Position numbers and translations under genes: made by a program. From Candidatus Woykebacteria bacterium (GTDB lineage: Bacteria; Patescibacteriota; Microgenomatia; Woykebacterales; RBG-16-39-9b), in NCBI GenBank assembly GCA_040876265.1, contig JBBDPN010000002.1, forward strand, positions 170,510 through 234,509: a stretch of 64,000 bases of DNA, in the 5' to 3' direction. How positions within the stretch are numbered: position 1 is the first letter of the stretch; each line of letters begins with the position of its first letter. The notes below the pieces were generated by a model. It had not been told where the DNA came from and made no database searches. It saw only the letters and a program-made list of their open reading frames with translations. This document shows, in pieces, positions 4,620-19,083 of the stretch.

Positions 4620-6107
4620 ATGCTTCCTCACAACTTCCTTAGCCCTCGTAGGAGTAGTTTGCGGGTAAAATTCTCTTTGGCAGCGGTTTTAATCTTTTTA
4701 GTAATTTTTTCTATCACATCCTTTGTTCTAATTCGCCAGAACATAGATTCTCAGAAAAACTCGCTATTAGCCCGCGCAAATACCTTTGCTGGTCTAGCTA
4801 CCAAACCGATCGGAGACGATTATACATTGTATTTTGAGTCTGGTTATTATAAATTTCGCGAGAGTCTCCAAGATATATTTGCACTCAATGAAGACATTAC
4901 TCGGGCTCAGATTATATCTGTCGATGGCGAAGTTTTTTTTGATACTTTTTATTTAGATTTAGCCGAGTCGCCATCACCAAAAAAAATTGACGAACCCCGC
5001 CTCCTGATAGCAGTTAGATCAAATAGCCTCACCGGTATAGCGGACCAAGGTGGCAGCATTACCCAAATAATTGTTCCGTACAACGATGATTTTGGAGCGA
5101 GACCGTTTTCGATCCGTTATTTTATATCTTATGAATCGGTTTACGAAAACATAAATAGTACTATCCTAACCACCTTATTACTGAGCGTATTGGTACTGAT
5201 TTTGGCCGTCCTGGCCATATCAGCGCTGGTTAATTTTTCTATACTTTCACCGCTAGGTAAGGTGGTTGCTGCGGCCAAGAAAATTAGCGAAGGCGATGTT
5301 AACACGGAGATAAAGCTTTCCACGGGTGACGAGCTGGAAGATATAGCCAGCTCTCTTGATCAAATGACGGTTACCCTGCGAAAAAATATTGAGGATCTTA
5401 AAGCGCTGGATAAACTAAAAAATGAATTTGTCTTTCTGGCATCGCATAACCTGCGAACACCACTGACAGTAGTAAAGGGATATGTGGATAACTTGAAAAA
5501 CGCGGATCTAGGGAAAAAAGCCGCTGCTGATTTGGAAAAGATCTCTGAAAGCACCCGCGAACTTGAAAGTATGGTGGAATCATTGATAAACCTAGTTTCA
5601 CTGGAAAAGGAAAAACAACTGACTATCAAAAATGAGGTTGATCTGAAAGACTTAATCAGGCAAATCACCCTGGACGCGAAGAGTAAATTAAACGAAAAGA
5701 GATTGAGCCTGGTTTTTGAGACGCCCGAGGAAAAGCTGCCAAAAGTTTCGGTAGATCAGAAGAGAATAAGACAAGCGTTTGAAAATTTGATTGACAACGC
5801 AATTAAATTTAACAAGGAAAACGGGAAAATAGTTATCGGCCTGCGTAAAAAGGGGGACAGCGTTGTAATTTCTATAGCTGACACCGGGATTGGAATATCC
5901 GAGGGGGAAAAGGCCCGAGTATTTCAAAAATTCCATCGAGCTACTGATGTTCTAACGTACAATTACGAAGGAATCGGTCTTGGGCTATACTTGGCAAAGT
6001 TAATTATTGAGGCCCACCAAGGGAAAATATGGTTCGACTCTACCATTGGAAAGGGAACCACCTTTTATGTTCAGCTACCCATTAAGGCAAAAGTGCAAGG
6101 GGGTTGA
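4620..6107 (+). CDS. sensor histidine kinase (2 TM, HAMP, HisKA, HATPase_c)
   Basis: H-box FLASHNLRTPLT, N-box DNAIKFN, G-boxes DTGIGI/GLGLYLAK, two TM segments. Confidence 0.85.
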   Translation: MLPHNFLSPRRSSLRVKFSLAAVLIFLVIFSITSFVLIRQNIDSQKNSLLARANTFAGLATKPIGDDYTLYFESGYYKFRESLQDIFALNEDITRAQIISVDGEVFFDTFYLDLAESPSPKKIDEPRLLIAVRSNSLTGIADQGGSITQIIVPYNDDFGARPFSIRYFISYESVYENINSTILTTLLLSVLVLILAVLAISALVNFSILSPLGKVVAAAKKISEGDVNTEIKLSTGDELEDIASSLDQMTVTLRKNIEDLKALDKLKNEFVFLASHNLRTPLTVVKGYVDNLKNADLGKKAAADLEKISESTRELESMVESLINLVSLEKEKQLTIKNEVDLKDLIRQITLDAKSKLNEKRLSLVFETPEEKLPKVSVDQKRIRQAFENLIDNAIKFNKENGKIVIGLRKKGDSVVISIADTGIGISEGEKARVFQKFHRATDVLTYNYEGIGLGLYLAKLIIEAHQGKIWFDSTIGKGTTFYVQLPIKAKVQGG

Positions 6108-6798
6108 TTGCGCCGTTCTTACTGCGAATCTCAAAGTGTAAATGGGCCCCGGTCGCATAACCGGTGGTTCCGACGTTTCCAACTGTTGTCTTGGTACTCA
6201 CCGGTTGACCTTTAACTACCTGAATGGACGAGAGGTGGGCGTAGGTCGTAAAAAGACCATCTTCGTGTTTAACCACCACCTTTTTTCCAAATCCACCATC
6301 CCAACCAGCAGATACTACTTTTCCGTGTTCAAACGGATACACTTTTTGCCCGTACCTCGATGGTATATCTATACCTTGGTGATGGTAGGAAAAATACGTA
6401 GAGATATAGGTTAGTGGTACGGGCCATCTGATCACAGGGGCTTCACGAGCTACGACCTGGGTTGAGATTTTAATTGATGCAGCCTGTTTTTGTATCGGGG
6501 CTGCTTGAGTAGCGCCATTTGTTAGTATAGATTCGGCTTGTGCTTTTGGACTGATTACTAAAAGGAATAGCAGTATCAGAGCGAACACCCTAAAAATAAA
6601 CAAGGGAACGGCTCGTTTGAAAACTTCCCAGAGCCAAAGGACGTCAGTATAGACGTCAGCCGCGTCCAATATAATAGCCTCCGGTGTAAACCAAATATGG
6701 CTGGGAAGTACCAGAGTAGTGGAGCCGAAGGAAAATTGTTCGTTACGCGGGGACAGATCGCGGTCCGATGTCCATCGGACTGCTTTGCGTTTTAACAT
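6082..6798 (-). CDS. M23 family metallopeptidase (LytM-like), membrane anchored
   Basis: HHQGIDI ... GxTGYATGAHLHFEIR motifs of peptidase M23. N-terminal TM. 26-nt convergent overlap with the kinase 3' end. Confidence 0.8.
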   Translation of the reverse strand: MLKRKAVRWTSDRDLSPRNEQFSFGSTTLVLPSHIWFTPEAIILDAADVYTDVLWLWEVFKRAVPLFIFRVFALILLFLLVISPKAQAESILTNGATQAAPIQKQAASIKISTQVVAREAPVIRWPVPLTYISTYFSYHHQGIDIPSRYGQKVYPFEHGKVVSAGWDGGFGKKVVVKHEDGLFTTYAHLSSIQVVKGQPVSTKTTVGNVGTTGYATGAHLHFEIRSKNGAINPLALLP

Positions 6799-15749: not shown

Positions 15750-16793
15750 ATGGATCAGAATACTTTACTGTTTATTTTAATAGCCGTGGTGGTGGTTGGT
15801 TTTATCTTTCTGTTTCGGCAATTCCAGTCTATCAAAGAAGAAAAGGACAAGGATAAATCTAGTGAGGTTCTCATGAAATGGCTAGAGGAAATGAGAACCA
15901 GTGTCGATAAAAGTACCGAGACTATGCAACGCAGACTCGATGCGACGAACAAAGCGATTAATGAAAGGTTGGACAATGCCGCTCGGGTCATTGCCGGGGT
16001 TGGCAAAGAAGTAGGGGCCATGAGTGAAATTGGACGTAGCATGAAAGACTTGCAGGACTTTCTGCGTAGTCCAAAACTGAGAGGTAATATCGGCGAGCAA
16101 GTGCTGAAAGAACTGCTAGGCCAGTTTTTACCAAAGGAAAGTTTTCACCTCCAGTACCGATTTCGCAGCGGAGAAATTGTTGACGCGGCGATAAAGACAG
16201 AGAGCGGCATTATTCCGATCGACTCAAAATTTCCGATGGAAAATTTTAAACAAATGATGAAAGCCGAAGGTGAAGCGGAGAAAAAGGTTTATGAAAAAGA
16301 GTTTGGCCGAGATGTAAAGAAACATATTGACGATATCTCTAAGAAATATATTTTACCCGAAGAAGGCACGATCGATTACGCTCTGATGTACGTGCCTAGC
16401 GAACCTGTTTACTATGAAATTATGAGTAATATGCCTGAACTCTCTGATTACGCCCACAAAAAGCGAGTATTGCCGGTTTCTCCATCCACTTTTTACGCTT
16501 ATATGCGGGCGATTTTGATGAGTTTTGAAGGAAAAAAGATAGAGGAACGCGCTCGCGCTATCCTCGCCGCCCTTCGCGGTATAAAGGGAGACAGTGAAAA
16601 ATTTGGCGACGCTTTGCGTGTTCTCACCAAACATATTAACGATACAAAAAACACTAGCGACTTAGTCAACTCTCGCTACATTTCTCTACACTCCAAAATC
16701 GACACCGCCGGAAGTTTAAAAAGCGCTGACAAAAAAGCCCTCGAAGAACCACTAGCAGTAGAAGAAGTCGAAGAGATTACGGAAGAAACTTAG
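15750..16793 (+). CDS. rmuC: DNA recombination protein RmuC
   Basis: N-terminal TM, long coiled-coil, and the RmuC C-terminal region (IDSKFPMENF ... YALMYVPSE). Confidence 0.8.
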   Translation: MDQNTLLFILIAVVVVGFIFLFRQFQSIKEEKDKDKSSEVLMKWLEEMRTSVDKSTETMQRRLDATNKAINERLDNAARVIAGVGKEVGAMSEIGRSMKDLQDFLRSPKLRGNIGEQVLKELLGQFLPKESFHLQYRFRSGEIVDAAIKTESGIIPIDSKFPMENFKQMMKAEGEAEKKVYEKEFGRDVKKHIDDISKKYILPEEGTIDYALMYVPSEPVYYEIMSNMPELSDYAHKKRVLPVSPSTFYAYMRAILMSFEGKKIEERARAILAALRGIKGDSEKFGDALRVLTKHINDTKNTSDLVNSRYISLHSKIDTAGSLKSADKKALEEPLAVEEVEEITEET

Positions 16794-16806
16794 GAGGAGA
16801 GCACTA

Positions 16807-17049
16807 ATGGTTATAGAACAAGATGGGTTCGCAACCATCGAAGGTACCAGAGTGAGAGTCAAGGATATTGCGGACCAGTATCAGCGCGGCCTTGATGAGA
16901 TAGTTGCAGAGAAGCTGCAGGACTATTTCCCGCACCGGAGCATAGAGTAGATCCAAGCCGCAATTTCCTACTGGCGTGAGAACTCGGAGAAGATCGACGA
17001 GGAAATCCGCGCCGAAAAGGAAGTCTTTTTGGAAGCGTCGAAAGGATAG
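16807..17049 (+). pseudogene. DUF433-family (antitoxin-like) gene with in-frame TAG at 16948-16950
   Basis: The N-terminal 47 codons (IEGTRVRV...DYFPHRSIE) and the downstream in-frame segment (IQAAISYWREN...) together match the DUF433 consensus (GTRIPV ... YPxLTxEDIxAALxYA). The TAG sits at the conserved D/E position. A GGAGGAGAG ribosome-binding site lies 5 nt upstream. Confidence 0.5.
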
Positions 17050-17076
17050 CGGGAAGAACCTAGAAGGGAGATCAAT

Positions 17077-17310
17077 ATGGAGTGGCAGGACTGGCTCGTA
17101 TGGGGCGTTCTTGCTACCTGGCTTGGTGGAGGGTTGGTGTACTTTGCTCACTTGACTCACCAAATTCGGGCCGAGACAGGGAAGTGGCTCCACCCAACCG
17201 AACCTGGAGCCCAGATCCTCACCATCCTCATATGGTGGGTGATACTAGCGGGACGCTTTGCTTCGTGGATAGGAGGAGTGATGAAACGAAGGAATGGGGA
17301 GGTCTTGTAA
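17077..17310 (+). CDS. small hypothetical membrane protein (2 TM), G+C-rich islet
   Basis: 77-aa ORF with a GGGAG ribosome-binding site 7 nt upstream. Followed by an intrinsic terminator (ACGCCG...CGGCGT + T6) at about 17326-17364. Confidence 0.35.
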   Translation: MEWQDWLVWGVLATWLGGGLVYFAHLTHQIRAETGKWLHPTEPGAQILTILIWWVILAGRFASWIGGVMKRRNGEVL

Positions 17311-17514
17311 TCCAACCGCGCAACGACCGCCCTTAACGCCGACTCACACGAGCCGGCGTCTTTTTTGGAAACGGGTCGTTTCTCTTTTCCTTCGACTTCG
17401 CTCTCTTCGAGCCTGAGCGATGAGGCTCAAGCCTCAGAGCCGAAGGCAGGACAAGTTTCCGCAGTTTCCTCTCATCTTGACGCACAAATAATATTGGTGT
17501 ATGTTATATACACC

Positions 17515-17802
17515 ATGAAAAGGACCCAGCTTTATTTACCGGAAAAAACTTTGAAAATTTTGAAAAAAGAGGCGGCCGAGACTAAAAGGAGCGTTTCCGA
17601 AATCGTACGGGAAACTCTAGATGAAAGATTAAGAGAAAGTAGAGGCAACCCGGCTAGATTTTTAGTTGATATGGCCTTGCGAGCCGAACGGCTTGGCTAC
17701 AGCGGTCCAGTCGATTTAGCTGAAAAACACGATGAGTACCTTTATGGTAAAAAATCTCCTAAATGGGGTTATCTCTACAAAAATAAAAAGAAGAAAAAAT
17801 GA
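17515..17802 (+). CDS. vapB: ribbon-helix-helix (CopG/VapB-like) antitoxin with lysine-rich tail
   Basis: MKRTQLYLPEKTLKILKKEAAETKRSVSEIVRETL is a classic RHH N-terminus. Its stop overlaps the PIN gene start (ATGA). Confidence 0.6.
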   Translation: MKRTQLYLPEKTLKILKKEAAETKRSVSEIVRETLDERLRESRGNPARFLVDMALRAERLGYSGPVDLAEKHDEYLYGKKSPKWGYLYKNKKKKK

Positions 17803-18194
17803 TTTTTGTAGACACCAGTGCTTTTGTAGCTTTAAATAACCCTAAAGACCCACATCACAAAAAATCACTTCAAGTAAGTTTAAATCTAGAAAAAGAATCA
17901 GCGCCCTTTTTTACCACGAACTACATTTTGGCAGAAAGCTATACTGTAATAAGCCAAAAAGTTGACAAAGAAGCCAGCGTTTATTTTAGAGAGAATTTGG
18001 ATTTAAGGATTCGTATTGTTAGAGTGGGTGAAAGTTTAGAAGAGACTGCTTGGGAAATTTTTAAAGAAACACGCTCAAAAAATGTTTCCTACGTAGACTG
18101 TACTTCTTTTGCGGCGATGAAGGCTTTTAATATCAAGCGGGCCTTTGCCTTCGACGATGATTTTAAAAGAGCCGGATTTTCTTTATTGACGTAA
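17799..18194 (+). CDS. vapC: PIN-domain toxin VapC
   Basis: MIFVDTSAFVAL start and conserved acidic residues of PIN domains. 131 aa. Confidence 0.7.
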   Translation: MIFVDTSAFVALNNPKDPHHKKSLQVSLNLEKESAPFFTTNYILAESYTVISQKVDKEASVYFRENLDLRIRIVRVGESLEETAWEIFKETRSKNVSYVDCTSFAAMKAFNIKRAFAFDDDFKRAGFSLLT

Positions 18195-18257
18195 CCGTAG
18201 AATCCTTACCCTCGAAGAACCCGAAGAAATCACCGAGGAGTAACGACACACTATAGG

Positions 18258-18286
18258 TTGACATTCGAACCTATTTCCTGTATAAT
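18258..18286 (+). promoter_or_regulatory. perfect consensus sigma70 promoter TTGACA-N17-TATAAT
   Basis: TTGACA at 18258-18263. Exact 17-nt spacer. TATAAT at 18281-18286. About 40 nt upstream of the next ORF and its ribosome-binding site. Confidence 0.5.
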
Positions 18287-18328
18287 TCCCATCATCAAAT
18301 TAGCTAAATAACCTTGAAAGGATAGAGA

Positions 18329-18592
18329 ATGTTCGACGAACCACGTCAAGGGAGCATCGTCGGAAAAGTACTAAATGTACTCCTCGACCACATTGATGAG
18401 TTCGTGACGGAGGATCATATCTTAACAGAGGCTAGCCTCTGGGAGGAACACCTCCATCCGAACTTTCAGCGACAGCGTGTAGTCGCTGCGATGACTACCC
18501 TGCGGGGCAGGTACCGCTGGAAGATCGACACGAAGCGTAGTGGTGAGTACCCGAGCGAGGGTAACACCGCCTACCGACTACCTACACAGTAA
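18329..18592 (+). CDS. hypothetical small protein (ORFan), G+C-rich islet
   Basis: 87-aa ORF. AAGGA ribosome-binding site. Codon usage is clearly G+C-richer than the flanking genes. Confidence 0.4.
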   Translation: MFDEPRQGSIVGKVLNVLLDHIDEFVTEDHILTEASLWEEHLHPNFQRQRVVAAMTTLRGRYRWKIDTKRSGEYPSEGNTAYRLPTQ

Positions 18593-18606
18593 GGAGGGAA
18601 ACTGTC

Positions 18607-18903
18607 ATGCCGTGCAACAACAGGACCGTTCAGGAAGTGGTGGAGGAATGGTTGCGACAAGCAAGTCGAAGCCTCGAAAACCAGCTTCCTTGGAAGAGAG
18701 AGGAACTGCTGGTAGAGGCGATACGGGAGTCACTCGGTGATCCTCGCCTAGCTTTTGCCACTAGAGTCGGGGGAAAGCTGGTCATCCCGCCACCGCACTC
18801 GATACCGGTCCCGCAAGAAATGGAGAGACGCCGCCTCATTTTGAGGATGGCGTTGACTCTGCTCACGGAGATGGAATTACTCCGTTATCAAAACCAACCC
18901 TAG
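18607..18903 (+). CDS. hypothetical small protein (ORFan), G+C-rich islet
   Basis: 98-aa ORF. AAGGAGGG ribosome-binding site 6 nt upstream. Followed by a hairpin (GAAACGACC ... GGTCGTTT) with a T-run at about 18990-19045. Confidence 0.4.
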   Translation: MPCNNRTVQEVVEEWLRQASRSLENQLPWKREELLVEAIRESLGDPRLAFATRVGGKLVIPPPHSIPVPQEMERRRLILRMALTLLTEMELLRYQNQP

Positions 18904-19083
18904 GGCGAGCGTTGAAGATGCTGGAAACAGCGATGCCACGACCCCTAGGAGCTCCTAAGTAAATCAAGGGATTGATTTTCTTAGGAGGAGAAACGACCCC
19001 GTGTAGTCTTGTATGAAGTGGTGGTCGTTTTTCTTTTTCCTTCACTTCGCTCAGGATAAGTTATCTGGTAAAATGGTTTATCC

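Follow-up and report, generated by a model that had tools for sequence, protein, structure and literature searches.

The gene that follows rmuC in this Candidatus Woykebacteria genome is most probably a recent nonsense pseudogene; we put the probability at roughly 0.8 that a solitary, vertically inherited, chromosomal DUF433 gene has here suffered a CAG-to-TAG mutation. The closest relatives carry CAG at the corresponding codon, the syntenic orthologue is intact, and the frame beyond the stop has not decayed. This evidence favors the "fresh nonsense pseudogene" that a preliminary description of the DNA had offered as one of its readings. The ancestral state would have been a solitary DUF433 gene (COG2442, encoding an antitoxin-like, helical, DNA- or RNA-binding protein) passed down vertically in the position after rmuC. 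A single C-to-T transition would then have produced the TAG, with translation ending after 47 residues.

An interrupted DUF433 reading frame

According to the sequence and the list of open reading frames, the frame begins with an ATG at 16807, meets a premature TAG at 16948–16950 and continues to the next in-frame stop, again TAG, at 17047–17049. It lies on the forward strand of the window, by which we mean the whole 64-kb stretch of DNA that was analyzed. Translation through the premature stop gives MVIEQDGFATIEGTRVRVKDIADQYQRGLDEIVAEKLQDYFPHRSIE, one residue at the amber position and then IQAAISYWRENSEKIDEEIRAEKEVFLEASKG, or 80 residues in all, of which the encoded product comprises the first 47. 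The coordinates and translation given in the preliminary description were exact. Its central observation, that a single amber codon interrupts a DUF433 gene, is borne out by the frame and by the Pfam match of the read-through product.

A Shine-Dalgarno-like AGGAGGAG can be read from the sequence at 16792–16799, 7 nt before the ATG, where it overlaps the stop codon of rmuC (TAG, 16791–16793). The 47 translated codons (16807–16947) cover the strand region and the first helix of the domain, and NCBI names their product hypothetical protein WD187_04000 of a Candidatus Woykebacteria MAG. Past the amber codon lie 32 in-frame codons (16951–17046), now untranslated. These represent the former C-terminal half, with the last two helices and an AAISYW...EKIDEEI motif, as located from the orthologue alignment and the AF2 model of the orthologue; the original stop codon aligns with the end of the orthologue. 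Restart of translation past the premature TAG is unlikely, because no in-frame ATG, GTG or TTG occurs before codon 27 of the 32, a TTG six codons from the end.

The family assignment was examined with the HMM search of the joined product that had been proposed as a check on the preliminary observation. With any residue placed at the stop, the 80-residue product matches Pfam PF04255 (DUF433) at 31.4 bits (E = 1.6e-7, residues 7–55), above the gathering score of 23.6 bits, and the match spans the premature stop, which corresponds to residue 48. Because the joined product passes the DUF433 threshold across the stop, the match is more than chance, and the observation stands. The encoded 47 residues alone reach 21.7 bits, which is under the gathering score, as a domain fragment. 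A subfamily profile built from alignment A3 also matches the solved DUF433 structure 2GA1 with E = 3e-13 over profile positions 6–82, the C-terminal helix included. Fold searches with the predicted structure did not recover DUF433 structures, and our structural statement is based on this profile match and on the AF2 secondary structure.

DUF433 is a predicted DNA- or RNA-binding three-helical-bundle antitoxin of PIN-like toxins (PMC2701414, PMC5499597). Members of the DUF433/COG2442 family, among them 2GA1 from Anabaena variabilis and the domain of M. tuberculosis VapB45/Rv2018 (PDB 5AF3), have the same size as the read-through product, 80–100 residues, and share with it the pattern G-T-R ... 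P-H-L ... Q ... A-A-L-x-Y. By contrast, an amber codon limits the product encoded by the Woykebacteria gene to the first 47 residues, and no PIN-like gene lies next to it. We note a weak match (E = 0.003) of profile positions 43–82, which correspond to the C-terminal two helices, to the CUE domain of human ASCC2 (PDB 2DI0). The two share the pattern LP.L....I.A.LEY....PE.I...I., and the similarity may reflect chance or a shared small helical motif.

The amber codon and the truncated product

In the DNA alignment, GAG-TAG-ATC of the window stands opposite GAG-CAG-ATC of the closest orthologue, P0002 (locus L002), placing the amber codon at Gln52 of that protein in both DNA and protein alignments. 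At this codon the three closest relatives (L002, L006 and L009) have CAG, and each of the seven relatives examined at the DNA level has CAG or CAA. At the protein level, the column holds Gln in 73 of the 78 sequences of alignment A4, the remainder being Ala (3) and Lys (2). The more diverse alignment A3, with 29 sequences, has 20 Gln, 7 Glu, 1 His and 1 Lys, and the residue in 2GA1 is Asp. The earlier expectation of a single-base change thus agrees with the orthologous codon in the three closest relatives. The expectation of D, E or Q at this site is right in substance, given the Gln column and the Glu found in part of A3, but the site is not the conserved acidic position it had been called; within the subfamily it is a nearly invariant glutamine. 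By these alignments, the event is therefore one C-to-T transition that turned the CAG of a nearly invariant glutamine into TAG. The stop falls on a codon that is sense in the relatives, lies one base away from that codon and removes conserved sequence, as is characteristic of a nonsense pseudogene.

The T itself is present in two assemblies. An independent Logan assembly made from run SRR27977662 matches the window base for base across 11,758 nt, the T included, which rules out an artefact of one assembler; both assemblies derive from one run, so polymorphism among the reads is a separate matter. The contig belongs to a metagenome-assembled genome and is known from one sample only, and exact look-ups of the RmuC and 77-aa proteins (the latter encoded just downstream) for sister strains with an intact allele returned that same sample only. 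One could therefore suppose that the organism, or most of its population, keeps CAG and that the T is a consensus error or one allele among others. The single-sample origin of the genome leaves room for this, and the intact frame and unrelaxed substitution after the stop are what an intact gene would show. However, the NCBI and Logan sequences agree without a mismatch, substitution errors are rare in short-read consensus, and C-to-T at CAG is a common real mutation. We regard an artefact or polymorphism as unlikely.

The consequence for the protein was assessed with an AF2 model of the intact orthologue. A single-sequence run was poor (pLDDT 56.5) and was repeated with a 78-sequence alignment, which gave a pLDDT of 90.6. 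This model contains two short strands followed by helices at residues 21–43, 50–62 and 64–82. The mutated glutamine, residue 52, is positioned at the start of the second helix, and the helix 64–82 comes next. According to the model, the truncated product would lose two of the three predicted helices together with the conserved A-A-[IL]-x-Y-W ... E-I motif. Having lost these two helices and the best-conserved motif of the C terminus, the 47-residue product is most likely nonfunctional, as expected of a young pseudogene. The relatives point the same way: all 78 have at least 28 residues beyond the amber column, so no natural short form of DUF433 is found among them.

The same observations bear on the idea that the 47-residue fragment is a small functional protein, a truncated and neofunctionalized DUF433. 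In its favor, the strong ribosome-binding site and start codon are kept, the conserved GTRVRV strand region is retained, and NCBI annotates the fragment as a gene. However, none of the 78 relatives ends near the amber column, the fragment lacks two of the three predicted helices and scores below the Pfam threshold, and no second copy of the short form exists among 5.8 billion clustered proteins. A functional fragment is the least credible of the explanations considered here.

Synteny, age and decoding of the stop codon

The closest relative, P0002 of assembly GCA_041476725.1, is an intact protein of 84 residues, 61% identical to the read-through product over 99% of its length. The gene order around it is that of the window: TatD, MetRS, a 130-aa gene, RmuC and DUF433, with a UvrD/PDDEXK helicase further on. 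Amino-acid identities between the two genomes are 67% for TatD, 68% for MetRS, 41% for the 130-aa gene, 84% for RmuC and 63% for the helicase, and DUF433 has 61–63%. The window's rmuC (15750–16793, forward strand) is the conserved upstream neighbor, ending in a TAG aligned with the end of its counterpart before the intact orthologue. Since DUF433 occupies the same place after rmuC and its divergence falls inside the flanking range of 41–84%, it was inherited together with its neighbors. The preliminary description had placed the gene in an acquired, G+C-rich islet; the intact syntenic orthologue and its identity within the flanking range speak against this. In G+C content the DUF433 gene slightly exceeds its background in both genomes (window, 0.50 versus 0.43; relative, 0.46 versus 0.40).

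Only the DNA that follows the DUF433 gene, at 17050–19080, is variable from one genome to the other. Four or five small genes occupy it in the window, where we find a 77-aa orphan ORF, two GC-rich orphan ORFs and a vapBC pair. In the related genome, L002 10256–10837 (compared with 16794–19083 of the window) holds a pair of small, unrelated ORFs in the opposite orientation, which encode a 76-aa coiled-coil-like protein and a 55-aa Cys-rich protein. The stretch from the DUF433 gene to the helicase is thus a variable spot that gathers small modules such as vapBC and the GC-rich orphan ORFs. Scans of genome and metagenome contigs for further DUF433 relatives returned only L003, L004 and L005 (match at 6001–6153), all of them false positives; they were discarded because the match lies inside a 397-aa aminotransferase that contains VKDIVAQY.

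The orthologue also permits a comparison of the two halves of the gene. The 32 codons after the stop are 59% identical to those of the orthologue, with neither indels nor further stops, and the codons before it are 64% identical. Likewise, pN against L002 is 0.216 for the codons that precede the stop and 0.274 for those that follow, a nonsignificant difference (Fisher p = 0.39). Synonymous sites are saturated between the two genomes (pS about 0.98), so the comparison is confined to pN before and after the stop and yields neither a dN/dS ratio nor a date for the mutation. The stretch after the stop is free of indels and has not diverged further than the one before it. Nearly all the changes therefore seem to have accumulated while selection acted on the whole frame, and the nonsense mutation is probably young compared with the separation of the two genomes. 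An intact frame beyond the stop suits a recent mutation, and it equally suits continued use of that sequence by way of read-through.

Amber read-through or recoding, possibly in an element of phage origin, had been raised as the other reading of the locus. Certain phages do recode TAG to Gln (genetic code 15), and tRNAs that suppress amber codons exist. The DUF433 gene shares with such phages a TAG where its relatives carry Gln. Unlike in TAG-recoded phages, however, TAG is an ordinary terminator in the window. The 52 ORFs of at least 150 aa there, which under the standard code span about 89% of the window, end in 27 TAA, 16 TGA and 9 TAG codons; the TAG terminators include those of rmuC, 14 nt upstream, and of the DUF433 gene itself. 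Reassigning TAG to a sense codon extends ORFs no further than the same treatment of TGA or TAA. Nowhere else in the window was a same-family pair seen split by a TAG. No tRNA-CUA is encoded in the 64 kb, part of a contig of about 302 kb in a larger genome, where the sole tRNA of the 64 kb is tRNA-Cys. Again unlike the recoded phages, the gene is chromosomal and syntenic with that of a relative and has no phage-like genes around it. A phage DNA search, a PHROGs scan and a viral contig scan gave no support for phage origin; the only PHROG matches were weak (E = 0.0016 and 0.059) and belong to families of unknown function. The coincidence of the ancestral Gln with the residue inserted in TAG-recoded phages follows from CAG being one transition from TAG. 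Neither recoding nor phage origin is upheld by these results, and the locus is most probably an ordinary pseudogene, with no sign of an unusual genetic code.

A milder variant of read-through would make the gene a leaky, attenuated allele. A near-cognate tRNA-Gln, or a suppressor tRNA encoded elsewhere in the small CPR genome, would restore the ancestral Gln at a low rate and yield traces of full-length DUF433. At UAG, Gln is inserted more often than any other residue, both by near-cognate tRNA-Gln and in TAG-recoded phages; here the ancestral residue is indeed Gln, the base after the stop is A, and the 32 downstream codons are intact and still conserved. A leaky allele, if real, would maintain a trace of full-length DUF433 regulator and would explain why those codons have not decayed. 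Against it stand the ordinary use of TAG and the lack of a tRNA-CUA in the window. Furthermore, the stop is not conserved: all seven relatives examined have a sense codon at the site, with CAG in the nearest three. The RNA past the premature stop is not unusually structured either (MFE −35.1 kcal/mol, z = −1.51, with 18 of 200 shuffled sequences folding at least as well), which gives no indication of a stimulatory element. We consider functional read-through very improbable, though slightly less so than a functional fragment. The nonsense pseudogene accordingly remains our reading of the locus, and it has no bearing on genetic-code change in CPR bacteria.

Toxin–antitoxin context

The preliminary description had remarked that the PIN-like partner typical of DUF433 is missing, and this proves correct. 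No PIN-like gene adjoins the DUF433 gene, the ORF downstream of it lacks a Pfam match, and tblastn with two DUF5615 proteins finds no match in the 64-kb window. The place expected for a toxin partner is taken by the 77-aa orphan ORF (17077–17310, forward strand, G+C 0.55), which encodes two hydrophobic segments and is not PIN-like. It has no Pfam or PHROG match, is absent from L002, and among the 5.8 billion clustered proteins matches itself only. A hairpin followed by a T-run is visible by eye after this ORF, at about 17338–17366. Fusion of the DUF433 gene to the 77-aa ORF through both TAG codons was considered, the two being in the same frame, and was rejected: the 77-aa ORF is provided with a ribosome-binding site of its own (AGGGAG), the orthologue terminates where the DUF433 frame aligned with it does, and two ORFs share a frame by chance in one case out of three.

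A vapBC pair had been placed some 460 nt downstream, and it does begin 467 nt past the DUF433 stop, at 17516–18194 on the forward strand. It consists of an RHH antitoxin (17516–17802; RHH_1, 33 bits) and a PIN toxin (17799–18194; PIN, 60.3 bits). The vapC gene, 850 nt downstream, comes with an RHH antitoxin and a promoter-like site of its own, and the pair is self-contained and unrelated to the DUF433 gene. The promoter-like site, at 17477–17505 (forward strand), consists of TTGACG, 17 nt and TATGTT. An inverted repeat, TGGTGTAT-N5-ATACACCA, extends over the −10 region and the vapB start codon (17495–17515), and is a plausible operator for the RHH protein VapB. The public gene call for vapB specifies 145 aa from a TTG at 17365. 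Initiation at the ATG at 17516 gives 95 aa, with the RHH domain from residue 3, and the public call probably starts too early.

Further downstream, a perfect sigma-70 consensus (TTGACA, 17 nt, TATAAT; 18258–18286, forward strand) precedes the two GC-rich orphan ORFs, which lie on the same strand and encode 87 aa (18329–18592) and 98 aa (18607–18903) at a G+C content of about 0.54–0.55. Neither has a Pfam or PHROG match or a counterpart in the related genome, and together they make up a small orphan module of two genes within the variable spot between rmuC/DUF433 and the helicase.

Paired DUF433 genes are found among more distant relatives. P0144 and P0149, each about 37% identical to the read-through product, have the arrangement of type II toxin–antitoxin pairs, in which a PIN-like DUF5615 gene (Mut7-C/COG4634) follows DUF433 directly, with a spacing of 7 nt or an overlap; both have CAG at the amber-site codon. 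Unlike these pairs, the window gene has no adjoining DUF5615 or PIN gene, and the same is true of the orthologue at L002 and of the genes at L006, L009, L007 and L012. Stand-alone COG2442/DUF433 genes are also described in Synechocystis PCC 6803, namely ssr2784a and ssl5025 (PMC4963859). These are likewise chromosomal and lack a toxin partner, and the Woykebacteria gene is additionally, in all probability, inactivated by a nonsense mutation. At L012 (1208–1776), the gene upstream of the solitary DUF433 gene matches Pfam HicB_lk_antitox, and at L009 (1163–1444) a 93-aa ORF downstream of the DUF433 gene looks HicB-like by eye, without a Pfam match. These neighbors suggest that the solitary DUF433 branch travels with other toxin–antitoxin debris.

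The lack of a partner may also account for the fate of the window gene. With no cognate toxin to neutralize, its loss would carry no toxin-linked penalty, and it could be tolerated and pseudogenization come easily. For the annotation, the 47-aa hypothetical protein WD187_04000 becomes a DUF433 pseudogene with an internal stop, and the mutation itself has little significance beyond that correction. The solitary DUF433 clade of Woykebacteria and relatives has no PIN-like toxin, yet it is kept beside rmuC under purifying selection, which suggests a role other than toxin neutralization.
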